From: an uncultured Verrucomicrobiae bacterium
Lineage (GTDB): Bacteria; Verrucomicrobiota; Verrucomicrobiia; Chthoniobacterales; UBA10450
Assembly: GCA_963772365.1 (NCBI GenBank)
Contig: CAVYXA010000001.1
Span: 768,001-832,000 of the forward strand
Direction: 5' to 3'
Length of the DNA stretch: 64,000 nucleotides
The translations under genes and the position numbers were made by a program. Below, in pieces: positions 7,746-64,000 of the stretch (positions within the stretch are counted from its first letter, which is position 1; the number at the start of each line of letters is the position of its first letter). The notes below the pieces were generated by a model. The model worked only from the letters and a program-made list of their open reading frames with translations, did not search any database and was not told the DNA's origin.

Positions 7746-7869
7746 ACAGTCTCTTGAAGCAACTCACATGCCCTTCGATACCACGCCTTCTCGCCCGTAG
7801 TGACATCACTCGAAGACGATGTAACGATGTAACGCTTCAATCTTGCTACGCTTAGAAATCTCCAAGCTC

Positions 7870-8952
7870 ATGTTTGTCGACCGTATCAAAGTTCTTGCAC
7901 AAGCTGGTAACGGCGGGCGTGGTTGCGTCAGTTTTCGGCGGGAGAAATTTGTCCCGAAGGGCGGACCTGACGGAGGCGATGGTGGCCGCGGCGGCGATGT
8001 AATCCTGCGTGCCGATCGACACGTCGATAGTCTTTCGAATCTTTTTTACGAACCAATCATTAAGGCGAAAAATGGCGGACATGGCATGGGAAAGAAAATG
8101 CATGGACGTTCCGCGCCGGCAAAGATCGTGCAGGTGCCGGTGGGAACAATTGGTTGGGAGGCGGAATCAAAGTCGGTCATCCTGAGCGAAAGCGAAGGAT
8201 CCCGTGATGCCCCCTTAAAGCTTTCGCAACGGGATTCCTCGGCTTCGCTCGGAATGACGAGTGGGGAACCGGTGGTCGATCTTATCCAGGACGGGCAGGA
8301 GTTTGTTCTGTGCCAGGGTGGAAAGGGCGGCAAGGGAAACGTGCATTTCAAGAGCTCGCGAAACCGCGCCCCGCGCGAATACACCGAAGGCGAAGAAGGC
8401 GAGGCGGGACATTTCCTGCTTGAACTGCGCACGATCGCCGACGGGGCCCTCGTTGGTTATCCGAATGCCGGCAAGTCGACTTTGCTTCGAAAAATTTCCG
8501 CCGCGCGCCCGAAGGTCGCGTCTTACCCATTTACGACGCTCCATCCGATCATCGGAGTGGTGGAATTTCCCGGTTATCGCCGCGCGGCCATCGCCGACAT
8601 TCCCGGCCTGATCGAAGGCGCGCATCGCGGGCTTGGGCTCGGTCACGAATTTTTACGGCACATCACTCGATGTCGGATCTTTCTCTTCGTTGTCGATGCT
8701 GCCGGAAGCGAAGGTCGGAGTCCGGTGGAAGATTTACAACAACTGCGACGCGAGATCGATCTCTACGATTCACGCTTGTCAGAGCGACCGTGGTTCGTGA
8801 TCGCCAACAAAATGGATCTGGGCGACGCGAGTGAAAATTTAAAAGCCTTGCGCAAACGATTCCCAAAAATCGAGATCGTCGCGGTTTCAGCCGCGAAAGG
8901 CGAAAACATCGATACACTAAAGAACAAGCTAGCCGACTGGCTCAAGCTGTAG
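7870..8952 (+). CDS. obgE: GTPase ObgE with an in-frame repeat insertion
   Basis: MFVDRIK, SFRREKFVPKGGPDGGDGG, GYPNAGKST, DIPGLIEGA, NKMD. Confidence 0.97.
   Translation: MFVDRIKVLAQAGNGGRGCVSFRREKFVPKGGPDGGDGGRGGDVILRADRHVDSLSNLFYEPIIKAKNGGHGMGKKMHGRSAPAKIVQVPVGTIGWEAESKSVILSESEGSRDAPLKLSQRDSSASLGMTSGEPVVDLIQDGQEFVLCQGGKGGKGNVHFKSSRNRAPREYTEGEEGEAGHFLLELRTIADGALVGYPNAGKSTLLRKISAARPKVASYPFTTLHPIIGVVEFPGYRRAAIADIPGLIEGAHRGLGLGHEFLRHITRCRIFLFVVDAAGSEGRSPVEDLQQLRREIDLYDSRLSERPWFVIANKMDLGDASENLKALRKRFPKIEIVAVSAAKGENIDTLKNKLADWLKL
8176..8258. repeat. family B palindrome in frame within obgE
   Basis: GTCATCCTGAGCGAAAGCGAAGGATCCC...GGGATTCCTCGGCTTCGCTCGGAATGAC, translated as VILSESEGSRDAPLKLSQRDSSASLGMT. 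Confidence 0.9.
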
Positions 8953-9027: not shown

Positions 9028-12000
9028 TTAATATTCGTGCTCCCAGTCATGACCGTCCGTGCAACAGTTCGTCACGTGCGTTGATTCGCGCTGAAGCGAC
9101 GCGCCGATCTTCGGATCGAAGTTCATCAAGAAGAGGTCGGGACTGGAATAATCAATGGCCTTCGACACAGTGCAATACAGTCCGGACTCGCCATCGAACC
9201 GCATCCCATTGAACAAATATGGATTTCCGATGGCGCTGGCAGGCAGCGGATTGCCTGAGCCGTCGAAGAAGTGCGGATCGCCGAAATCTTCGTATTCGTA
9301 CCGTTCAGCCGCGCCCCCAGCAGGGTTGGTCAACGGCCAGATCGCAACATCGGACCCCGCTCCGACATAGGTGAAATTATTCCCTGCGCGACGCATCTCG
9401 ACTGGGGCTAGCGAATATCGAGGATCCAACAATTCAGGCCAGGGGCCGCGTCCATCGTCCATCGTGCGCAAGTTAAAAGCCCAGTCGCTCTCGCGATATT
9501 GAACACAGTAGTCGCGCTGGCAAGAGCATTGGTCATCGCACATTTCGCCACCACGTTCTGTACAGACACCAATCGGGGGGAGCGGCTGGATCGGGAGATG
9601 TGGCAAATCGACCATCGTGCACAATACCCACCAGGGTAGAGACCCGCCACCGCCGTTCCAATCTCCTCCGCGAACCGGTACCGTGCTGTAGCCTGCTGTT
9701 ACCCCGCCGCTGCCGTCGCGCTCCTCCAGAACAGTGCGTCCAGTATAAAAGAAATTCGTGGTGTTCGGTTTCCCGTCGGGATCGAGTGTCTTCGCGATGC
9801 GACGACCATGCGCGTCGTATTGATAATTGGCAATCCGCAGACCGGTATTCACGTCGGTAAAATCGACAAGACGGTTTGCGTAATCGTAGGTGTAGTTCTT
9901 GTTCGCGCCGCCGCCGTTGAGACTAGTGCGGTTGCCATTGGCGTCGTACAAATAGTTGCCGCGGGGCGTGCTGGTATACTGGCTCATCTGCGCATCCGCG
10001 GGCTCGGGCGTCGTGTTATCCAGGAAATAGGGCCCGGGATCGGGTGTTTGAAAACCATTCACGGCAAGCCGATTGCCGTTGCGGTCGTAATTGTAAATCG
10101 TGTCGCGCACAAGTGTCGGGCCGGGCGCGTTCACTTGCGTATGCACATTTCGATTTGCCGGGTCGTAATCATAATGATGCAAAAGTTGCGGCCCGCCCGA
10201 GCGGGTGTCTGCGCGCTCGCTCAGGTTTTGGTTGGCATCGTAAGTAAAAGTGCGTTGATCGAGAACGATGTTGCCGAGTTGAAGCGTAACCGTGCCGGCC
10301 ACCTGTCCCCAGCCAAGGTCGGAGCTTGGCGGCGCGTCGACAAATCCATTGTAGCTGAACAATGTCGATGTTGCATTGCGGTGCGAAACACTCTCAGTCC
10401 GGCGTCCAATGTAATTATACGTCGCCATGGTTCCCAATGTATCGCCATCGCTTGTCGCCGTTAGGCTGACGCTCGTACAAAGATTTGCCACGTCGTGCGC
10501 GTAAGTGAGTGTGCGTCCACTCGGCGATTGCAACGTCAACAAATTGCCGACCGCGTCGTGTGTGTAGCTCGTAACCAGGTTCCCTAAACTTTCGCTGGTG
10601 CGGTGCGCCAGTGAATCGAAGGTGTAGCGCACGACTGCTGCATTGTTGATCGCGCGCTCAGGCCAGCGGTATTCGCCAGGGTAATCGTAAATCTCAAACG
10701 TTGTGGCGTTGGATACTCCCGGGCCGGGAATGATCTGGCGCTGACGAAGCCGATTCAGATTGTCGTAGTTATTGATACAGACAGTTGCGTTCTCATCGTG
10801 GGATTGAACTGCGTTGCCCCAGGCATCATAGCTCCAGGTTTTCGCCGTGGTGTCGGCATTCGTCCGCTGAAGACAGCGGCCCAGCGCATCGTACTGATAC
10901 TGGGTCGAATACGAATTGGGATTGGTCGCGCCGGTCAAACGCGAATTGTCATCCCAAATCCGCCCACTAATGACGTCGATCCCGGCGTCGAATCCTGAAC
11001 CGTTTCCGTTCATGTCGCGTCCGCTTCGGAGCAATCGATTCAGACCGTCATACTCGGATTGAACGAGCTTATTTCGCGGATCGATATATCGCACTCGATT
11101 GCTGCGCGAGTTGTACAAATAGCTTTGGGCATTCCCCACGTTGTCAGTCGAGGTAATTAGCCGATCCAAACCATCATAGACATTCGTCAGAACAAATACT
11201 TGATCCGACGACGCCGAATCTGATTTATCGGTCCGCGTCCGCGTCACCAGATTTCCATTTGAATCGTAGGTGTAATCGACGGAATTGGCTTTTGGATCGG
11301 TGATGCGTGAAAGGCGATTCGCGCCGTCATACGAAAACGATGTCGCGTGTCCGTTGTCATCTGTCACGCTTGTTACATTCAGCGCCGGATCACGTCCGAT
11401 TGAGATCGTGCGCGCGCCATCGTCGATCGTGGCCGTCGTGATCGGATCAAACCAACTCTCGGTCCTCTGGGTCAGAATACCGTTGGTATCGTAAACAAAC
11501 GTCCCGCCGCGTAGTGGGCCGAAGTTTGGATTGCCCTTCGCATCGAGAAAAGTCCCCTGCATCGTGAAATTCGTGACTTGATGGTTTTCATTGTAACCGT
11601 ACTGCGTGTTGGTTCCGACCGGATCGGTTAACATTGTTAGGCGATCAAAGCCGTCATAATCGTAAAGCGTCGTGTGCTGCAGCCCGGCGGGCGCACCAGT
11701 TTCGAGCCTGGCCAGATTACCATTGAGATCGTAGGTGAATTTCGAGCCGGTGGCGATTGGACTACTGGGCGCCCTGATCGCCGTAAACGGAAGATTCCGT
11801 TCATCGAATGCGTACCGCACGCGGGCATCCGGTTGCAAGCCGCCGGCCGCCAGCGGCGAGCGCATTTCGATCAACTCGCGAATCGGATCATAAAAGTATT
11901 GCGCCGTGATCGTGTGCGCATTGTCCAAGTCGCGTGTGATCGAAGTCACATGATCGAGTGAATCAAAACTGAAGCTGGTGACGAAAAACGCCGGCGTCCC

Positions 12001-14469
12001 AATGCCGCCGAATTCGTCCTTGTTTTGCACATCGACACGCGTGATCCGGTTGTTGGCGTCGCGGTAAATATTCGTGAGAAAACGTCCCGGCGTCCCCGCA
12101 TCGCGCGAAGTAACCTGCACGACTTGATTCAATTGATTAACGAAAAATTGCGTATCGTTCCCGCGAGGATCGACAATCTGTGTGACGCATCCGACTGAAT
12201 TGTGCGTGAACGCGGTCGTCAGATTTAATCCGCCGGCATCGCGAATGAACGATTGCAGATATCCATTTTGCGCGCCGCTGGTGTAATAATGCCACTCATC
12301 GCGTTCGCGATGACCGGTATTGTTCTGCGGCCAGACGATCGCAGTGAGCTGACCGTTCGCGTTGTGTTCGATGTCGGTCGTCACTCCATCCGGCCTGGTT
12401 ACGCTCATTGCGTTTCCGTTCGCATCGCGCGCGCATGTCCAAGTGAACCCGCGCGCGTCGGTACGCGCGACGCACCAACCAACTAATGGGTCACCGGTCT
12501 CAAAGATTCCGCCACCGACTTCCCCAAGGCTGGCCAACTCAGGGATATGGTCGTAGGGAGCCTCGTCTTCCTCCATCCGGATCTTGTGGGCTGCGCCCGA
12601 GCCGTCGCCAAATCCGACATGATAATAGATCCCCGTGTAGTCTATTCCGTCGCCGTTCAAATCACCGTATATAGGTCCGGCCTTACATTTGATGCCATCA
12701 CCTAATTTTAAGTAGTCTTCGACTCTGCATTGCAGGCGGCTGGAGAAGTCGAAGTCCGATTCGCGATATTGGACGCAGTAGTGGCTTGATGAGACGTCCT
12801 CGTCGATGTAGTCCACCATGTTGCACGCGTTTACGGCCTGAATGTAAGGTCCAGGGTCGCCGTTACCGTTGAAGAACGTTTTCTCGAAGCCGAAGTTGAA
12901 CTGCGGCGCGAGCGGTGTCCTCTCGCCGGTTCCGAAGCCGGATGCGTATTCGAAGTGTTGCACAAGCGGCGCGCCGCTGACTGGTAATTGCCGATGCGTC
13001 CGTAAATTTCCGCGTTCGCGCGGATTCGTATTTGGATCGAGATCACGCTGATAAACCATTTCGACACCATTCCCGCGCGGAAATGTCACTCTACTCGGCA
13101 GCGAGTCGCGGTTCCATTCGATTGTTGTTTCGAAAAACGCCGGATCGGTCGGGCGCACGGGATTCATCGGGCGGTTTGAGCTCTCGGTCACCGGAACTCC
13201 TGGTGTCGATCTTCCGGTGAAGCGCCGCAAATCAATCAGCCGATTTTTCGAATCAAACAGTGATTCATGGACGTTGCCGATCGCATCATTCACGATCGTC
13301 TTTGTCGCCGCGTTGAACCGGCTCGTCGGACTCGTCCTGGCCAGATACGTGAAGATCTTCGTCTCGTTCGCGGTGCCGACGATTTCACTGGCCACTCGGT
13401 CGTAAAGAAAACTAGTCGCTGCCGCCGTCGTTGTATAAACGGCTTGAAACCATGGCACGTTGTTTCCGTCTTTCGCGGTCAGCAGATTGTGATCTCGCCC
13501 ACCTCCAAGTCCGGTGCTGTAGGTAAACTGCGCCGTTTTTCCCGAGGGAAAATCGTTACCGATCGGCGTGCCGGTAACCGCTTGTGACCGGACAAGAACG
13601 AGATCGCCCACGTCTCCGATGCCAGGAGTCGGGCTGGTGAGATGTTGATATTGAATCGTACGGCCCGCGAAATCCTGAACAGCCTGAATCCGATTCGCGC
13701 CATCGTAGCTGATTTGAAACGGCCGATTCAGGCTGTCGATGATCAGGAACAACCGGCCCGCGCCGTCGTATTGAAACTGAATCTGGTTGGAATTGCGATC
13801 GATGATCTTGTCGATCTTGCCCGATGTCGGCGAACCGTTGAGCGACTTGAAGATCCATCTCGTCTTATCGGCAAATTCCAACGTGAAAACCTTTTCGGAA
13901 AGCGTGCCGCGCCGGAAGAGTTCGTCGGTAGAATATGATCCGTCCGATTGAAGAAAGTAAGTATCGATCCGGTTCTGCCCGTCTTGGACAGTGACGTTCG
14001 GCCCACTCAGCGCCGCGCGAATGTTGTAGGAAAAATCCCAGTTCACGCCCATCGCCGTGTCCAATCCGATTTTCGAACGATAGGTTCGGCCCCAAACCAG
14101 ATCGAGACCGCGTCCCGAAATAACAAGATCAAGGTACTCAACGAACAATTCGCCAGTGGCTTCGTTGACTCTGGGAACGCCGAAGAGCGGCTGAAGCTTG
14201 TTTACGGCGTCGAGCATTGTGAAAAATGGTTTATCCGAGTAGCGAGGGACAATGTCGTTGAAGTCGAAATCGCCCTGCACGGGCCACTGATCCTCAAAAA
14301 GAAAGCTGCCCAGATGGACCCTTTGCGAATTCACAGCCGGCGCAGTCGGTGGAGATTCCTGATCATTGCCGCCGACCGCACTTTGAAGGAGCGCAACGAT
14401 TGCGGCGAATGTAACAATCCATCGTCGCCACGCGTTGGAGCGAGCAAATCCGCGAAGACAAGTTTTCAT
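9028..14469 (-). CDS. Rhs/YD-repeat protein (DUF6531-like N-domain) with Sec signal, motif-mosaic inserts and no C-terminal toxin
   Basis: MKTCLR..hydrophobic signal; VNEATGEL..GRGLDLVWGRTYRS..GVNW; many YD repeats; core end NPYLFNGMRFDGESGLY. Confidence 0.9.
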   Translation of the reverse strand: MKTCLRGFARSNAWRRWIVTFAAIVALLQSAVGGNDQESPPTAPAVNSQRVHLGSFLFEDQWPVQGDFDFNDIVPRYSDKPFFTMLDAVNKLQPLFGVPRVNEATGELFVEYLDLVISGRGLDLVWGRTYRSKIGLDTAMGVNWDFSYNIRAALSGPNVTVQDGQNRIDTYFLQSDGSYSTDELFRRGTLSEKVFTLEFADKTRWIFKSLNGSPTSGKIDKIIDRNSNQIQFQYDGAGRLFLIIDSLNRPFQISYDGANRIQAVQDFAGRTIQYQHLTSPTPGIGDVGDLVLVRSQAVTGTPIGNDFPSGKTAQFTYSTGLGGGRDHNLLTAKDGNNVPWFQAVYTTTAAATSFLYDRVASEIVGTANETKIFTYLARTSPTSRFNAATKTIVNDAIGNVHESLFDSKNRLIDLRRFTGRSTPGVPVTESSNRPMNPVRPTDPAFFETTIEWNRDSLPSRVTFPRGNGVEMVYQRDLDPNTNPRERGNLRTHRQLPVSGAPLVQHFEYASGFGTGERTPLAPQFNFGFEKTFFNGNGDPGPYIQAVNACNMVDYIDEDVSSSHYCVQYRESDFDFSSRLQCRVEDYLKLGDGIKCKAGPIYGDLNGDGIDYTGIYYHVGFGDGSGAAHKIRMEEDEAPYDHIPELASLGEVGGGIFETGDPLVGWCVARTDARGFTWTCARDANGNAMSVTRPDGVTTDIEHNANGQLTAIVWPQNNTGHRERDEWHYYTSGAQNGYLQSFIRDAGGLNLTTAFTHNSVGCVTQIVDPRGNDTQFFVNQLNQVVQVTSRDAGTPGRFLTNIYRDANNRITRVDVQNKDEFGGIGTPAFFVTSFSFDSLDHVTSITRDLDNAHTITAQYFYDPIRELIEMRSPLAAGGLQPDARVRYAFDERNLPFTAIRAPSSPIATGSKFTYDLNGNLARLETGAPAGLQHTTLYDYDGFDRLTMLTDPVGTNTQYGYNENHQVTNFTMQGTFLDAKGNPNFGPLRGGTFVYDTNGILTQRTESWFDPITTATIDDGARTISIGRDPALNVTSVTDDNGHATSFSYDGANRLSRITDPKANSVDYTYDSNGNLVTRTRTDKSDSASSDQVFVLTNVYDGLDRLITSTDNVGNAQSYLYNSRSNRVRYIDPRNKLVQSEYDGLNRLLRSGRDMNGNGSGFDAGIDVISGRIWDDNSRLTGATNPNSYSTQYQYDALGRCLQRTNADTTAKTWSYDAWGNAVQSHDENATVCINNYDNLNRLRQRQIIPGPGVSNATTFEIYDYPGEYRWPERAINNAAVVRYTFDSLAHRTSESLGNLVTSYTHDAVGNLLTLQSPSGRTLTYAHDVANLCTSVSLTATSDGDTLGTMATYNYIGRRTESVSHRNATSTLFSYNGFVDAPPSSDLGWGQVAGTVTLQLGNIVLDQRTFTYDANQNLSERADTRSGGPQLLHHYDYDPANRNVHTQVNAPGPTLVRDTIYNYDRNGNRLAVNGFQTPDPGPYFLDNTTPEPADAQMSQYTSTPRGNYLYDANGNRTSLNGGGANKNYTYDYANRLVDFTDVNTGLRIANYQYDAHGRRIAKTLDPDGKPNTTNFFYTGRTVLEERDGSGGVTAGYSTVPVRGGDWNGGGGSLPWWVLCTMVDLPHLPIQPLPPIGVCTERGGEMCDDQCSCQRDYCVQYRESDWAFNLRTMDDGRGPWPELLDPRYSLAPVEMRRAGNNFTYVGAGSDVAIWPLTNPAGGAAERYEYEDFGDPHFFDGSGNPLPASAIGNPYLFNGMRFDGESGLYCTVSKAIDYSSPDLFLMNFDPKIGASLQRESTHVTNCCTDGHDWEHEY

Positions 14470-14658
14470 AACGATGCCTTTCCAGTTCAGCGCCGTTACC
14501 AACCCACCGCCTCGCGGCAATCTGCGAAAGGCGGCCTGAAAACCGCCCGCAGCGTCGAACGCCCGATTTAAATCAGATGCCCGGCCTAACGGCAAGCTTA
14601 ACTTTCTATTTCAATCGCATCCTTGCGAAGGCTCTTTGGACATTGGAGTTTGTTGCGA

Positions 14659-15603
14659 ATGCCTCGCTTCCAAACGAATTCTCCTCTGACTTTCGAGCCG
14701 ATTTTCATGGAACGAATTTGGGGGGGGCGCCGGCTTGAGTCGGAATTCGGCAAGAAACTGCCGCCTGGCATGAGCATCGGTGAATCGTGGGAACTTGTCG
14801 ATCGTCCGGAAGCGCAAAGCGTCGTCCGAAATGGTGAGTTGCGCGGGAAAACGCTACACGAGCTCTGGATGCAGCATCGACAATCGATCTTCGGCAATAT
14901 CCTCGATGCTCCACGATTTCCGCTGCTCGTGAAATTGCTCGATGCGCGCGAGAAGCTGTCCCTTCAAGTTCATCCCCCGGAAAAAATCGCCGCGAAATTA
15001 GGCGGCGAGCCGAAAACCGAATTCTGGTACATCGCCGCGGCTGATCCAGGCGCCCGGCTGTTTGTCGGATTACGAGGACCGATGAGCCGCTTGCAATTTG
15101 AAGCCGCCCTCCGGTCCGGAACCGTAGAGCAACACGTTCATACCATTTCAGTGAAAGGAGGCGACGCGATGTTTCTTCCGGCAGGTCGCTTCCATGCAAT
15201 CGGCGCCGGCAATCTGTTAGTCGAGATTCAGCAGAACAGCGACACCACGTATCGGGTGTTCGACTGGAATCGAGCTGATGCCAACGGGAAGCCTCGACAG
15301 TTGCATATCGAGCAAGCACTCGAGTCCATCGACTTCGAGGATGTTCGACCAGAATTGGCTCGAGCCGAAGGCGAAACTCTGGTGCGCAATTCGCTGTTCG
15401 AAGTTGTGAAATGGAAACTCGATTCTCCCCGTGAAATCGCACCCCGCGGGAAACTTGCCATCGTTTGCAGCCTCAGCGGTAACGTTCGCTGCGGTGATGT
15501 CGATCTTGAGCCCGGAGAATTTTTTCTGGTTCCGGCGGAGTCATGCGCGCGACAAGTTGAAGCAGTTCGAGGAGAAGCGAGCTTGTTGCGGATCACAATT
15601 TAA
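14659..15603 (+). CDS. manA: type I mannose-6-phosphate isomerase
   Basis: RIWGG, IGESWE, LSLQVHP, KTEFW, EIQQNSDTTYRVFDW. Confidence 0.92.
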   Translation: MPRFQTNSPLTFEPIFMERIWGGRRLESEFGKKLPPGMSIGESWELVDRPEAQSVVRNGELRGKTLHELWMQHRQSIFGNILDAPRFPLLVKLLDAREKLSLQVHPPEKIAAKLGGEPKTEFWYIAAADPGARLFVGLRGPMSRLQFEAALRSGTVEQHVHTISVKGGDAMFLPAGRFHAIGAGNLLVEIQQNSDTTYRVFDWNRADANGKPRQLHIEQALESIDFEDVRPELARAEGETLVRNSLFEVVKWKLDSPREIAPRGKLAIVCSLSGNVRCGDVDLEPGEFFLVPAESCARQVEAVRGEASLLRITI

Positions 15604-16255: not shown

Positions 16256-16952
16256 TTCTCTTTTCCCGGCCTTGATCGTTCCCCGAAAATTGCCGTGCCG
16301 ACGCGCACCAGCGTCGCACCTTCTTCAACTGCCACCGGGTAATCGTTCGTCATCCCCATCGAAAGCTGTGGAAGCTTCAACTCGAATTCTTTTTCCAAGG
16401 CGTCGCGCAGATCGCGCAACTGGAAAAAAACTTCCGCGACGCTTCGGCTTCTTTGGCCAGCGGCGGAATTGTCATCAAGCCTTCGATCGACAACCGATGC
16501 AGCGCGAGGAGCGATTCCATTTCTCCCCGAAGCGTTTCCGGTTTGAATCCAAATTTACTCCCCTCCCCCGAGACATTCACTTCCAACAAGGTTCGCGGGT
16601 GCATGCCGTCTTCTTCCGCGATCCGATTGATCTCTTCCGCCAACGCCAGCGAATCGATGCTGTGAAACAGTTCGAACAACGGAAGCGCGTGGCGAATCTT
16701 ATTTTTTTGGAGATGCCCGACAAAGTGCCATCGCAAACTCGATGGCAGTTCCGGAATCTTCGCTCGCGCTTCCTGGACGCGGCTTTCACCGAACAATGAT
16801 TGGCCCACATTGTATGCCTCACGAACGCGCTCGGCAGTGTGCGTTTTCGAGATCGCAACGAGCTCCACTTCCTCCACGGAACGTCCACTCTTTCGGGCGG
16901 CATCTGCGATTCTGGCGCGAACACGTTCAAGGTTCTCAGCGATGTTCGACAT
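16207..16952 (-). CDS. yggS: YggS/PLP homeostasis protein (single frameshift near 16425)
   Basis: [26 protein letters not shown] in one frame; [17 protein letters not shown] in another; break lies in an A7 run. Confidence 0.9.
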
Positions 16953-17066
16953 ATGGAATGCTAGCCCAATCATTCGCTTCGGAAACTGCAACATCGGAAT
17001 GGCGTCGACACCATCGATCGGAGTCTGAACGCTTGCGCCCGGACGAGAGGTCGTCGATCTTCCCCG

Positions 17067-17516
17067 GTGAAAACTTTCGCTCTTGGGATCATCGCTGCGT
17101 TTGGCTTCTTCGCTGTTTCGGTTGCGCAAGCGGATTCACCGTGGCTAACGGATTACAAAAGAGCGCAGGAGCAAGCCAAATCCAGTAACAAGCTGCTCTT
17201 GCTCGAGTTTACGGGCTCGGATTGGTGTCCGCCCTGCCGAATGCTCCAGAGAGACGTTCTCTCGGCTCCGGAGTTTCAGGATTATGCGAAAAAGAATTTT
17301 GTCCTGGTCGAGATTGATTTCCCGCGGGCAAAAAAGCAATCGCGTGAACTGGCCGAGCAAAACCAAATGTTGGCCCAGCGTTTTGGCATTCAGGCTTTTC
17401 CTTCGGTGATCATTTTGAACAGTGAAGGAAAGAAAATCGGCGAGCTGATCGGATACGACCCCCGTGCGGGCAAAAAGGGCTTTATGGACTCGCTCGAAAA
17501 CATTCGCAAAGGCTGA
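17067..17516 (+). CDS. exported thioredoxin-family protein
   Basis: Signal peptide; FTGSDWCPPC. Confidence 0.9.
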   Translation: MKTFALGIIAAFGFFAVSVAQADSPWLTDYKRAQEQAKSSNKLLLLEFTGSDWCPPCRMLQRDVLSAPEFQDYAKKNFVLVEIDFPRAKKQSRELAEQNQMLAQRFGIQAFPSVIILNSEGKKIGELIGYDPRAGKKGFMDSLENIRKG

Positions 17517-58886: not shown

Positions 58887-59056
58887 CCGTTTCGAAAGAG
58901 CGTTTAATTTGCGGAGATACGCGGAAGCGTCAAATCCACACCCGTTCTGAAAACGTCTCGACGAACACCGAATCATTCGATACGGAACCGCCAAATTATT
59001 GATTCACCTGGCGGGCACAAACTGTGCATTATTCCGGCCATTCAAAATCCTGATTT

Positions 59057-62050
59057 ATGGAAGGCATCATTCTGTTGCTCCTGATTGTCGTCGTAATCAT
59101 TTGTGTGTTGCCAATCGTGGCGATTGTAAAAGCGAGCGGCGCTCAGCGAACCCTGATTGATCTAAAGACCCGGTTAGCCGAACTCGAGCAGCAAGTGCGC
59201 GGATTACGGGGCGAAACGGGCGTGCGTGCTCCCTCAGCGGTGGAACCAAGTCTCGAGCCGATTGTTCCCGCACCCGCCATAGCTCCGACCCGTCCCAAAC
59301 CGTCACCCGCAGTTCCGCCGCCTTTGCCAATCGAAGTTACTGCTCAAACGAGATCGACATCTCCACCATCGCCAATTCCCGCGACTGTTTCGCCGAAACC
59401 ATCGTTGCCTGCGATTAATTGGGAACATTTTATGGGCGCGAAACTTTTCGCCTGGATCGGCGGGCTGGCCCTGTTTCTTGGCGTCGCGTTCTTCGTGAAA
59501 TATTCGTTCGAGCACAATCTGATTCCACCCGAGATCCGAGTAAGCATCGGATTCGTGGTCGGCTTGGCGCTGGTGATTGGCGGGGTCGCGCTCAAGCGCA
59601 AGGAACACGCGGTCACTGCCCAAACACTTTGCGCGACGGGCATCCTGATTCTTTACGCGGTCACATTCGCCTGCCGATCGTTCTATCACTTCGCGTTCTT
59701 CGGACTCATCCCAACCTTTCTTCTGATGACGCTGATCACCGCCGTCGCGTTCTTGCTTGCGGTGCGACTCAATGCAATTGCGGTGGCGATTCTCGGAATG
59801 GCCGGCGGTTTTCTCACGCCGGTCCTACTCTCAACCGGTCAGGATAATCCAGCTGGTCTATTCGGATATCTGGCCTTGCTCGACCTTGGTCTGGTCCTCG
59901 TAGCTCGCCGCAAGCACTGGAGCGCACTCCCGATCCTGGGCGCGATCGGGACAATTTTCATGCAGGCCGCTTGGGTAACGAGTTTCTTTCTCACACAAAA
60001 ATATTTTCTCGGCAGCAAACTATTTGTGCCGATGGCGGTGTTTCTCGGGTTTGAAATTCTATTTTGCGCGGCGCTAGCCTCGATCAAATCCGGAGCGAAA
60101 TCCGAGCGTGCTTTTGCCGCGGCTGCGATCGGCATGGGCGGAGCGGCAATTTTGTGGGGTTTCTATTTCTTTTCGTTTCAACCAATCGGCCAACGGCCGG
60201 TCGTGCTCCTCAGTTACATTTTTCTCGTCGATCTTGTCCTGCTCACAATTGTCTTCCTAAAAGAAAAACTGGCGCAGCTCGCAAATGTTACGGGTCTGGC
60301 GGTATTCGTTTTTCTGGCGAGCTGGACCGCTTCCTATCTAAAATCTGAAAATCTTTACGTCGCGCTCGGGGCGTTTTTTGTATTCGCGCTGCTCCATTCC
60401 GCCGCGCCGCTGTTGTTACAACGCGTTCGCAAGATCAATATCGGATGGTGTGGACATCTGTTTCCGGCATTGGCGCTCATCCTGGTTTTTCTGCCGATTT
60501 GTAATCTCGACCAGGTTTCATTTTTAATTTGGCCGTTGGTCTTATGTGTGGATCTCCTGGCCATCGTGCTGGCAGGAATTACCGGCACGCTCTTGTCGAT
60601 CCTGGTTGTTCTTGTGCTCACTCTTGTCGTAATCGGTGGCTGGATTTTCCGGATTCCGGCCGAGCTGACCGGGCTCGATACTTCTCTCTTTCTCCTCGGC
60701 GGCTTCGCCATTTTCTTTTTGCTTGCCGCGCTGTGGGCGTCGCGACGTTTGATCGGCAAATTCGATACCACAAGCGGAAAACTCTTCGGCGCGCTGACCA
60801 TTCCGGCAAATTTCGCAGTCCAACTTCCGGCATTGTCGGCCACGTTGCCGTTTTTGTTGCTGATCATGGTGACGCTCAGGTTGCCGCTGGCGAATCCATC
60901 GCCGGTTTTCGGGCTGGCATTGTTGTTTGGCATCTTGCTGCTGGGCATGACGAAAATCATGGATTTGGAATTGCTCGCCGCCGTTGCGTTAGGATCGACA
61001 GTCGCTCTTGAGTATGCCTGGCACGGAGCTCATTTCGACACTCGTCACGCCTTGTTGCCGATCGCTTGGTACATCGGATTCGCAGCGATCTTCACGATCT
61101 TTCCATTCCTCTTTCATCGACAATTCGCCAAACGAACATTGATCTGGGCCACGGCCGCGCTGGCTGCGCCTCTGCATTTCTTTCTGATCTATGACGCGAT
61201 CCGCCGCGGTTATCCAAACGGCATGCTCGGGCTCGTGCCGGCGATCTTTTCCATCCCGTCGCTGCTTGGGCTGATTGTTTTGCTCAAACGCACACCGGTG
61301 GAAAGTCAGGCGCGCAACGCCCAACTGGCGCTATTCGGCGGCGCGGCCCTGTTTTTCATCACATTAATTTTTCCGATCCAGTTCGATCGACAATGGATTA
61401 CGCTGGGTTGGGCGCTCGAGGGCGCGGCGCTGTGCTGGTTGTTTCATCGCATCCCGCATCCCGGGTTGCGGTTGGTCGGCGCAGGGTTGCTGGTGGTGGC
61501 GTTTGTGCGTTTGGCATTCAACCCGGCTGTGTTGAATTACCACGCCCGAACCAGCACACCGATTTTCAACTGGTATCTTTACACTTACGGCATCGTGACG
61601 ATCTGTTTGTTTGCAGGGGCGTGGTTGCTGGCGCCGCCGCGAAACCTCATCCTTGGTCGAAAAGCTCCGCCATTGCTTTACGCGCTCGCCACCATCCTGG
61701 CGTTTCTGTTAGTCAACATCGAGATCGCCGATTACTTCACCCCGCCCGGCGCGAGCGCGCTCACTTTTCAATTCTCCGGCAATTTCGCGCGCGATATGAG
61801 TTACAGCATTGCCTGGGCGTTATTCGCGTTGCTGCTCTTGATCATTGGAATTCGACACGCTCTGAAACCTGTTCGTTATGCAGGTCTCGGTTTGCTCGGT
61901 GTGACGATACTCAAGCTTTTCCTGCACGATCTCTCCGAGCTCGATCAACTTTACCGGATCGCTGCGTTCATCATCGTGGCCATCATCGCCATCGTGGCAT
62001 CGTTTCTTTATCAGCGTTTTCTCGCGCTTCCCGAAAAACAAACGCCATGA
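59057..62050 (+). CDS. DUF2339-type large membrane protein
   Basis: WEHFMG.KLFAWIGG..GVAFFVKY; GGFLTP; KLFLHDL..LYRI. Confidence 0.88.
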   Translation: MEGIILLLLIVVVIICVLPIVAIVKASGAQRTLIDLKTRLAELEQQVRGLRGETGVRAPSAVEPSLEPIVPAPAIAPTRPKPSPAVPPPLPIEVTAQTRSTSPPSPIPATVSPKPSLPAINWEHFMGAKLFAWIGGLALFLGVAFFVKYSFEHNLIPPEIRVSIGFVVGLALVIGGVALKRKEHAVTAQTLCATGILILYAVTFACRSFYHFAFFGLIPTFLLMTLITAVAFLLAVRLNAIAVAILGMAGGFLTPVLLSTGQDNPAGLFGYLALLDLGLVLVARRKHWSALPILGAIGTIFMQAAWVTSFFLTQKYFLGSKLFVPMAVFLGFEILFCAALASIKSGAKSERAFAAAAIGMGGAAILWGFYFFSFQPIGQRPVVLLSYIFLVDLVLLTIVFLKEKLAQLANVTGLAVFVFLASWTASYLKSENLYVALGAFFVFALLHSAAPLLLQRVRKINIGWCGHLFPALALILVFLPICNLDQVSFLIWPLVLCVDLLAIVLAGITGTLLSILVVLVLTLVVIGGWIFRIPAELTGLDTSLFLLGGFAIFFLLAALWASRRLIGKFDTTSGKLFGALTIPANFAVQLPALSATLPFLLLIMVTLRLPLANPSPVFGLALLFGILLLGMTKIMDLELLAAVALGSTVALEYAWHGAHFDTRHALLPIAWYIGFAAIFTIFPFLFHRQFAKRTLIWATAALAAPLHFFLIYDAIRRGYPNGMLGLVPAIFSIPSLLGLIVLLKRTPVESQARNAQLALFGGAALFFITLIFPIQFDRQWITLGWALEGAALCWLFHRIPHPGLRLVGAGLLVVAFVRLAFNPAVLNYHARTSTPIFNWYLYTYGIVTICLFAGAWLLAPPRNLILGRKAPPLLYALATILAFLLVNIEIADYFTPPGASALTFQFSGNFARDMSYSIAWALFALLLLIIGIRHALKPVRYAGLGLLGVTILKLFLHDLSELDQLYRIAAFIIVAIIAIVASFLYQRFLALPEKQTP

Positions 62051-64000
62051 GGTTTCGATCGACGCTCGGTTTCTTCCTCGGGCCGCTGTTGCTTGTCGGC
62101 CCGGTTGAAGCATTGACACCGAATGAGTGGAAACAGAGCCAGGCCATCGAAGTGCCGGCGGCAGGATTGATCCGGCTGAAACTTCCGCCCGAAACAATCG
62201 ACGCGGCGCGACCCGTTCTCGAAGATTTACGGATCATCGACAACGCAGGCGCTGAGGTACCTTACCTTGTCGATCGTCCGATGCCGCACGTGGTCTCGAT
62301 GGTGCGACCAAAGGAATTGCGTACCGAGCTCGAACCGCGAACGACCCGAATCATTCTGGCAACCGGAACGAACTTGTTGATCAAAGCCGTAGAGTTCGAG
62401 ACGCCGAGCGCGGAGTTCCTGAAGGCCGTGCAGGTAGAAGGTTCCCAAGATGGAACCAAATGGAACGAGCTCACTGGCAGTCAGCCAATCTTTCGAATGA
62501 CCGGTGGCGCCTCGAATCTGCGGGTCGCATTTCCTGAAGGCGCCTGGAATTTTTTGCGACTATCAATCAATGATAGCCGAACTGCCGCCGTGCCGTTCAC
62601 GGGAGTGCAGCTTGAGGTGACGGAACCGAATGCGCCGCCGGACGTCTTCAATGTTTCGATCAAGTCGTGCGATGAAAGCTTCGGCAAAACGCGGCTGGCG
62701 CTCGATCTGGGAGCATCAAAACTCAATGTCGCCGTGTTGCGCATCGAAGCGCAAGATCCGCTGTTCACTCGCGCGGTCACGATTGCTGTGCCCAACCTCG
62801 ATAACGATACGATCCGCGAACAAACGCTCAGTACCGGGTCGATTTACCGAATCGAGCTTAATGGAAAAGTAGAATCGCGCCTGGAGGTGCCGATTAATGC
62901 GCAGATTCGCAGCCGCCAGTTGATCGTATTGATCGACAACGGCGATAGTCCGCCGCTGGCCATCAAATCAATCGAAGGCGAGCGACGTATGCCAACTTTA
63001 GTTTTCCTCGCACGCGAGACCAGCCGTTACACATTGCTTTCCGGCAACAATCAATGTGCGGCGCCGCGTTATGATCTCGCGGGACTAACCGAGCAATTGA
63101 AAACTGCGACGGCGAAAGAATTGACGCCGTTGTCATTAGTCGCGAATGGCGATTACAAAGCACCGGACAATCTCGCGGCGGTCCCGTTGCAGGGCGCAAA
63201 GATCAATGTGACTGGCTGGAAGTTTCGCCGAGCAATTGCAGTAAAACAATCGGGGGCGCAACAAGTGGAGCTCGATCCAGATGTCCTGGCACATGCGGCC
63301 AGTGATTTGCGCGACCTGCGAGTTGTAACGGAGGATCGACAACTGCCGTATCTTCTGGAACGGACATCGATCTCTCGATCGATCCAGTTAGAGACAAAAT
63401 TGGTGAACGATCCCGAAAAACCGCGGGTCTCGCGATGGTCGTTGAAGTTGCCGCAACCGGGAATTCCAATTACTCGAGTCACTTGCACGCCCGCATCCGG
63501 TCTTTTTGAAAGAGACATGCGTCTCCAGGAAGAGGTGTCCACAGAGCGCGGCGATACTTATCCGCGCGAGCTCGGCCGAGCGAAATGGCAGCAGTTGCCT
63601 AACCAACCGACAAAGGAACTCTCGATTCGTCTCGATGCGACACCCGAAAGCGACACCCTGTTTCTGGAGACGGACAATGGCGACAATCCGGCCATCAATC
63701 TGCAGAATTTCCAGGCAGCTTATCCCGTCACGCGCGTCATATTCCGGACAGGCGCGTCGAACGAGCCGACATGGCTGTATTATGGCAACCCGGAAGCCGA
63801 CGCACCGCATTACGACGTGAGCCTGATCGCCGATCAACTCCTGCGCGCGGAACGCGTCACGCCCATGCTGCAACCGGAGCGGAGCACCGACTCAACAACG
63901 GCGCGAATTACGCAAACGCTCACGGGTTCTGCGCGCTACATTTTCTGGGGCGTTCTCGCAGTGGTGGTAATCGGGCTGTTGCTGCTCATCTCGCGATTGC
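62047..64000 (+). CDS. DUF3999-like exported protein with C-terminal TM (runs off the window)
   Basis: ATGA overlap with the DUF2339 gene; DLRIID..EVPY, IDNGDSPPL, YYGNP..APHYD; same frame at the window end. Confidence 0.8.
   Translation, partial: MRFRSTLGFFLGPLLLVGPVEALTPNEWKQSQAIEVPAAGLIRLKLPPETIDAARPVLEDLRIIDNAGAEVPYLVDRPMPHVVSMVRPKELRTELEPRTTRIILATGTNLLIKAVEFETPSAEFLKAVQVEGSQDGTKWNELTGSQPIFRMTGGASNLRVAFPEGAWNFLRLSINDSRTAAVPFTGVQLEVTEPNAPPDVFNVSIKSCDESFGKTRLALDLGASKLNVAVLRIEAQDPLFTRAVTIAVPNLDNDTIREQTLSTGSIYRIELNGKVESRLEVPINAQIRSRQLIVLIDNGDSPPLAIKSIEGERRMPTLVFLARETSRYTLLSGNNQCAAPRYDLAGLTEQLKTATAKELTPLSLVANGDYKAPDNLAAVPLQGAKINVTGWKFRRAIAVKQSGAQQVELDPDVLAHAASDLRDLRVVTEDRQLPYLLERTSISRSIQLETKLVNDPEKPRVSRWSLKLPQPGIPITRVTCTPASGLFERDMRLQEEVSTERGDTYPRELGRAKWQQLPNQPTKELSIRLDATPESDTLFLETDNGDNPAINLQNFQAAYPVTRVIFRTGASNEPTWLYYGNPEADAPHYDVSLIADQLLRAERVTPMLQPERSTDSTTARITQTLTGSARYIFWGVLAVVVIGLLLLISRL

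Follow-up and report, generated by a model that had tools for sequence, protein, structure and literature searches.

The window, the 64,000 nucleotide stretch of DNA that was analyzed, carries on its minus strand an open frame of 1855 codons (9028-14595; protein P0001) encoding an Rhs/YD-repeat protein with a hydrophobic, signal peptide-like N-terminus. YD/RHS repeats were recognized in 11 stretches by PF05593 (155.5 bits) and also by TIGR01643, and a sequence search with the protein matched known Rhs structures. The Rhs-associated core model TIGR03696 did not match P0001. Among its relatives, the model scored above cut-off in 5/5 plain proteins, which have short loops, versus 0/19 proteins of the mosaic clade described below, one of the 19 being truncated. 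No family of any kind matched the last 50 amino acids of the protein, whose tail is 13 residues long. The sole downstream ORF on the same strand encodes 95 amino acids, overlaps the converging ORF 7843-8952 in antisense orientation over much of its length, and has no counterpart among the orthologous loci. The gene product is best read as a secreted Rhs beta-cage that has lost its cleavage motif and toxin tip. The VgrG model TIGR03361 gave 34.6 bits with the window protein, against a cut-off of 186.35, from two stretches of about 25 residues each. No other VgrG match, full-length (gp27/gp5) or short, was found in the window's genome (G000, 90% complete). Features of the gene are collected in Table 1.

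Table 1. Coordinates of the Rhs/YD-repeat gene, its variable slots and the short borrowed words found in them.
Feature	Position	Strand	Remark
Rhs/YD-repeat gene	9028..14469	-	1813 aa from probable ATG at 14469
Slot S1, aa 91-132	14200..14325	-	Low conservation; carries LruC-domain N-terminal word
LruC word in S1	14248-14304	-	TIGR04456 model positions 2-27, E 8.8e-9
DUF6531	13957..14169	-	Family match; conserved shell begins here
Slot S2, aa 557-710	12466..12927	-	154 aa replacing a loop of about 9 aa (alignment of relatives)
Word like motif of a secreted protein encoded in the same genome	12829..12864	-	11/14 residues; weak, E 0.21
Word VDYIDED	12796..12822	-	VgrG word next, here and in distant homologue P0011
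VgrG word, copy 1, 16 aa	12733..12780	-	15/16 identical to real VgrGs
GDxNGDGIDT-type repeat word	12625..12675	-	Best match P0122, E 3.6e-7
Third VgrG word FEIYDYPGEY, aa 1300-1309	10669..10698	-	Takes the place of a look-alike scaffold segment
Slot S3, aa 1636-1731	9403..9690	-	96 aa replacing a loop of about 10 aa (alignment of relatives)
VgrG word, copy 2, 14 aa	9475..9516	-	Looser VgrG-like residues until about aa 1714
Mini-slot S3b	9331..9369	-	VgrG word here in several relatives
Slot S4	9121..9171	-	Takes the place of the usual 5-residue segment in the Rhs-associated core
Slot S5, 13-residue tail	9031..9069	-	Plain relatives have PxxxxDPxG and the C-terminal domain here

To survey relatives, residues 120-720 were used as the query, which gave 145 relatives among 8000 scored candidates; 120 of the 145 were listed. 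Their alignment shows a conserved scaffold with five or six unconserved stretches, here called slots. Among the 120 listed relatives, S2 is at most 15 residues long in 74 and at least 30 in 40; the corresponding numbers for S3 are 91 and 18. FastTree was run on 1236 scaffold columns from 110 of the proteins, with the slots excluded and 10 distant or gappy rows left out, and the tree was rooted at its midpoint. A clade of 35 proteins (support 0.98) has an expanded slot in every member; by the same length rule 13 of the 75 proteins outside the clade also have one, in one case probably through truncation. The PxxxxDPxG motif is present in 1/35 proteins of this mosaic clade versus 52/75 of the others, so the clade does not fit the definition of classical cleaved toxins (PMC8636562, PMC11606950).

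A scan of 355 genomes of the family found the window gene in six, whereas G012, a genome of the same genus, gave no match. In three of the six carriers the gene has the same position and the same neighbor genes, the scaffold is 66% identical to that of the window gene, and the slots are largely different. The genes at 14623-15603 and 16377-17135 are also neighbors of the Rhs gene in G058, G197 and G202; the product of the first resembles a type I phosphomannose isomerase. Judged from their sequences, the conserved neighbors at the four syntenic loci resemble ordinary housekeeping genes. A mosaic member is also present in Haloferula sp. A504 (WP_396260808.1). One metagenome locus scan was empty and the other returned a single distant locus. 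The Rhs genes of G197, G200 and G203 are frameshifted (L133:6139-12457, L135:5971-11989 and L136:5482-11399), through assembly error or decay.

The peptide YCVQYRESD occurs twice in P0001 in one shared frame, inside S2 (nine codons at 12754-12780, minus strand, residue 606) and inside S3 (nine codons at 9484-9510, minus strand, residue 1696). The coordinates and codons of both copies are those given in the initial annotation. When the window protein was shuffled 2000 times, no shuffle produced an exact 9-mer repeat. All six nucleotide differences between the copies are synonymous, comprising three wobble changes and all three letters of one serine codon. The flanks had been called unrelated. 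This is correct for the left flanks, which are not VgrG-like beyond the residues RD in copy 2, and incorrect for the right flanks, which are partly shared; the stretch common to both copies is about 15 residues with 11 identical, rather than nine residues. Conserved VgrG residues that lie upstream of YCVQYRESD are absent from the window protein. Nor does the motif belong to the usual Rhs architecture, as most relatives have loops of about 10 residues at both places, or to an alignable duplicated domain. Outside the Rhs case, a GTDB run found at least 121 stretches with the motif, and the 120 that were parsed are all real VgrGs, as are 4/4 carriers in IMG/VR. Of two additional pattern scans of viral sequences, one produced a single unrelated match and the other none.

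The copies do not stem from a recent duplication (pS 0.69), as had been argued. The recoding had also been held to favor independent capture from different donors, and for that purpose it is weak evidence. The scaffold, too, is saturated at synonymous sites (pS 0.64-0.77), so recoding fits an old copying event inside one Rhs gene or between two of them as well as it fits independent capture. When 58 real vgrG genes that encode this peptide are compared pairwise, the mean difference is 5.2 nucleotides and 49% of pairs have the TCG/AGC serine switch, which is thus an ordinary change. Threonine, a one-step bridge, occupies the serine position of the motif in 61/120. Six differences with a serine switch are typical of real vgrG pairs, so recoding is expected of any two old or independent copies. 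Copy 2 is probably old, since the syntenic orthologue of G058 carries an equivalent word in that slot. A nucleotide search for the source of the pieces gave nothing above controls in the window's own genome and, for copy 1, a best match of 42/48 nucleotides among 140 VgrGs. Capture of vgrG pieces, together with selection at the peptide level, is the best reading. The initial annotation had not recognized that the loops are whole mosaics with many donor families.

In the clade of 35, the expanded loops are mosaics of pieces, mostly 10-40 residues long, from conserved blocks of other families, including VgrG, Hcp, gp5, EF-Tu, HU, cold-shock proteins, kinases and LruC. Comparison with 92 full VgrGs found 46 matching pieces, or words, in 21 of the 120 listed relatives (of 145) and in the second half of the G197 gene. 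They are mostly 9-36 residues long, and some reach 55-91. The four most conserved VgrG blocks hold 12, 9, 5 and 13 words, and 3 of the 15 most conserved blocks hold none; the bias toward conserved blocks may partly be a bias of detection. VgrG pieces occupy at least five separate loops and the shell interior in scrambled order, and in G058 they are out of VgrG order. Profile scans of two sets of 24 whole proteins (46/119 relatives in two overlapping, hand-chosen sets, mostly mosaics) named Hcp, gp5, eCIS core, CIS tube, Tyr kinase, reprolysin, CAP, EF-Tu, HU, cold-shock and H-X9-DG, most of them below family cut-offs. By eye, more than half of the slot residues of the window protein have no identified donor. 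Searches of PHROGs and PDB with the slots returned the VgrG word or weak matches only, ESM Atlas gave weak matches or none, and S2 searched against longer proteins found the protein itself and 12 weak VgrG matches. The pattern GWDGT(I/V)KG was absent from 251 genomes of the phylum. A consensus skew (SRLMEEEG in 7/8 Rhs copies versus 29/118 real VgrGs) was dropped, as all 46 pieces span percentiles 0.05-0.99.

The words are shared. YCVQYRE[ST]D, whole or partial, occurs in nine other relatives, and the G058 protein has two recoded copies of another VgrG word with 7/9 codons different. A VgrG word fused to RSMDxGKTWQ occupies S2 in G058 and S3 in G197, and one fused pair is common to the window protein and P0011, a protein from outside the clade with 42% identity. 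Sharing extends to orphan words, for which no donor family is known. A search with one slot of P0081 returned 25 shorter proteins; 22 of these belong to the unrelated Peptidase_S74 family and have words in common with the Rhs slots, among them a kinase word in two and an EF-Tu word in one. The vocabulary of words thus crosses scaffolds, between Rhs and Peptidase_S74. P0145-P0168 are repeat-built proteins with a signal peptide and Peptidase_S74 that hold the same words, and P0166 has a weak dockerin match; the phenomenon thus probably involves two scaffolds besides Rhs. Exact 7-mers revealed no second mosaic protein in G000. That genome does encode a second, unrelated Rhs protein of 1743 aa (G000:C4:105323-110554) with an intact core, a short C-terminal tip and, by eye, no borrowed words, as well as two ordinary orphan Rhs C-terminal modules (C3:399199-400044 and C3:404582-405610) with an intact core, a plain loop, DPxGL and their own tips.

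Alignments show that several words land where the scaffold already resembles them. A kinase word replaces a look-alike NRLTRRDI site, VgrG words replace TFE.F.YDG, GLE.P and YH.D.LG...LT sites, and a baseplate word replaces an IDEVL site. When 1447 scaffold positions were ranked, ten look-alike sites chosen by eye fell within the top 0.3-33% (Fisher p 2e-5 for nine of them), two of the ten being unremarkable (0.33 and 0.26). A less selective test ranked about 726 VgrG 7-mers by their likeness to the end of the plain S2 loop. The 7-mer ending YCVQYRE[ST]D was the best in 74/92 VgrGs and within the top five in 90/92. In P0078 the VgrG word passes straight into the scaffold at the loop-end point, and in P0004 and P0013 S2 starts with the downstream half of the VgrG word. 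The VgrG word in S2 of the window protein is now in the middle of the slot. For all these sites, microhomology means likeness at the peptide level, the only level at which junctions were examined.

Reading frame and divergence were examined in genes for which DNA was available. In five genes 20/20 VgrG matches are in the coding frame and none in the other five frames; a wider donor set gave nine off-frame matches, which are shadows of the same words except for two weak ones. Shared words have pS 0.64 and pN 0.16 over 167 codons, the latter lowered by choosing words for amino acid similarity, and the scaffold has 0.64-0.77 and 0.13-0.22. The words diverge like the scaffold, with codons drifting and amino acids kept. 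GC3 is 0.63-0.65 in the slots versus 0.62-0.64 in the scaffold. Turnover of the slots is slow, since P0003 is identical in three records (ENA, Logan, JGI) and slots are unchanged between proteins with 95% identity. At 90% identity S2 shows a 56-residue duplication, and at 74-80% the slots are mostly replaced, yet S2 is identical in P0026 and P0031. Because most mosaics belong to one clade, these counts are not independent.

Possible donors and machinery were sought in the genomes. The genome of the window (90% complete) contains neither a donor of the slot DNA above controls nor silent donor cassettes. Slot DNA had no match in the genome beyond chance, and none of the 20 largest families of direct repeats near the gene is a template repeat differing at adenines. 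The reverse transcriptase family PF00078 (RVT_1) had no match in G000, G058 or G197 (85-93% complete). Among the five genomes tested, G202 alone has an RVT_1 match (L138, G202:C4:318019-318651). A full vgrG above cut-off was present in 0/48 sampled genomes of the family and in 38/301 genomes of the order, and a vgrG of the matching subtype was found in one genome of the same family (L190). Hcp-family matches above cut-off occur in G058:C4 and G197:C7 (L181-L183), genomes that lack a full vgrG, and not in G000. ComEC is present, and it was also matched in 10/14 control genomes.

The reading that we prefer, with a probability of about 0.5, is that short patches of other genes were grafted at sites of microhomology, spread between genes and were kept by selection. 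In the capture step, which we infer, a single-stranded DNA piece of another gene would anneal at a resident look-alike and replace or extend the resident sequence, much as in short-patch illegitimate recombination. The VgrG motif may have entered S2 in this way, given the likeness of its tail DFNFVSR to NFVTR, the end of the ancestral loop. Words and fused pairs would then travel between slots, distant Rhs genes and other secreted families, producing the shared vocabulary that is observed. Finally, as the divergence shows, words are held in frame at scaffold-like conservation while their codons drift, which leaves two copies identical in protein and recoded in DNA. Permissive loops would thus have slowly accreted short pieces of other genes.

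A dedicated, frame-aware system might instead graft pieces of mRNA or cDNA, or codon- or peptide-level matches, into target genes. Such a system would fit the 20/20 in-frame matches, the replacements at peptide look-alike sites, the equal GC3 of slots and scaffold, and the presence of very abundant proteins (EF-Tu, HU, Csp) among the donors. We consider it unlikely, as RVT_1 is unmatched in three of the mosaic-bearing genomes and matched once in G202, the conserved neighbors look like housekeeping genes, turnover is slow, and selection alone could produce the frame bias. Equally doubtful is the larger proposal that in some bacteria a dedicated, frame-aware process writes signature motifs of secretion-system spikes and tubes, EF-Tu, cold-shock proteins and kinases into look-alike sites of secreted scaffolds, at the codon or RNA level and without chance annealing of DNA, building a heritable cross-family peptide library that serves as a memory or as a decoy panel of conserved epitopes. 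It is rather improbable that the words have no function and are renewed neutrally, being overwritten by homologous environmental DNA so that only conserved blocks can be refreshed and hence become recoded. The copies do differ as much as real vgrG genes do, the words concentrate at the four most conserved VgrG blocks and are no nearer to the consensus than real members, some pieces reach the upper lengths given above, and ComEC is present. However, anchors of 30-50 nucleotides would demand high rates, near-identical donor DNA was not found among the 140 VgrGs, orphan words are shared too, and ComEC is equally a feature of most control genomes.

That the words are relics of an ancient fusion of VgrG with Rhs, or of a VgrG domain duplicated and then eroded to its conserved blocks, is largely refuted and very improbable. 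Although several words fit one VgrG subtype and VgrG-Rhs fusions exist (8qja), the pieces are scattered in scrambled order over the loops and shell, plain relatives have short loops at those places, many donors are not VgrGs, and the protein lacks the conserved VgrG residues that precede the motif. An artefact of assembly, or convergence by chance, is scarcely credible. Most records are metagenome assemblies and three copies are frameshifted, but there are four syntenic orthologues, one protein recurs identically in ENA, Logan and JGI, the Haloferula strain has a mosaic member, and the shuffles argue against chance.

Microhomology-guided grafting has partial parallels in known systems. Diversity-generating retroelements create variable regions in the constant scaffold of a surface protein by means of a reverse transcriptase, a template repeat and adenine substitution. 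The variable regions on a constant scaffold are similar here, but blocks are replaced, and an RT match and template repeat were absent from the genome searched. In segmental gene conversion (Borrelia vlsE, Neisseria pilS) mosaic loops are assembled from short segments of silent cassettes by sequence similarity. Mosaic variable loops built from short donor segments on the basis of similarity are shared with that process, but the genome has no cassette array, the donors are unrelated families, and turnover is evolutionary rather than within-strain. Rhs polymorphic toxins such as Photorhabdus Rhs1/Tre23 are described, in the available text, as having a YD-repeat shell, DUF6531 and a variable C-terminal toxin that is cleaved (PMC8636562, PMC11606950). 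The window protein shares the YD-repeat shell, DUF6531 and a constant scaffold with a variable part. It differs in that internal loops vary instead of a swapped C-terminal toxin, the pieces are below domain size, PxxxxDPxG, a toxin domain and a full vgrG are lacking, and a conserved immunity gene is not apparent.

A further parallel is SPDIR, in which, according to the available text of 10.1101/2023.11.22.568220, patches of 3-100 bp are inserted at microhomologies, foreign DNA is also used, and the rate is below 1e-12 in wild-type Acinetobacter. Dependence on single-stranded DNA and suppression by RecA, RecJ and ExoX characterize its products. Patch size and possible foreign donors agree, and entry at microhomology may do so, judged by the likeness of peptides. 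SPDIR is a rare mutation process, however, and that text describes no bias toward frame or conserved motifs, whereas the patches seen here are many, retained, in frame and recurring. Since SPDIR has no preference for frame or conserved blocks, selection would have to supply both.

What selection might favor is a more tentative matter. The cage could possibly display a changeable set of conserved motifs that, as baits or decoys, would engage binding proteins, sensors or proteases belonging to competitors, phages or predators. Alternatively, the words may be tolerated, well-folding filler. Some borrowed EF-Tu and cold-shock pieces may overlap regions recognized by plant immune receptors.

The scaffold belongs to a known family and the word-grafting pattern appears to be the new part; no description of such motif mosaics was found in the open full-text literature. 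If the preferred reading is true, proteins can acquire sub-domain parts from unrelated families at sites chosen by likeness and retain them by selection. Transfer of sub-domain motifs, otherwise mostly argued from ancient similarities, would then be directly visible and countable. The syntenic orthologues for which DNA exists, the entry point predicted for one particular motif and the isolate that carries a mosaic member offer a test system. For annotation, short VgrG, Hcp, EF-Tu or kinase matches in proteins of this kind do not show that the corresponding systems are present. Elsewhere in the window, two long plus-strand ORFs of 998 and at least 935 codons occupy 59054-64000, and a strong AT skew is present at 60001-62000.
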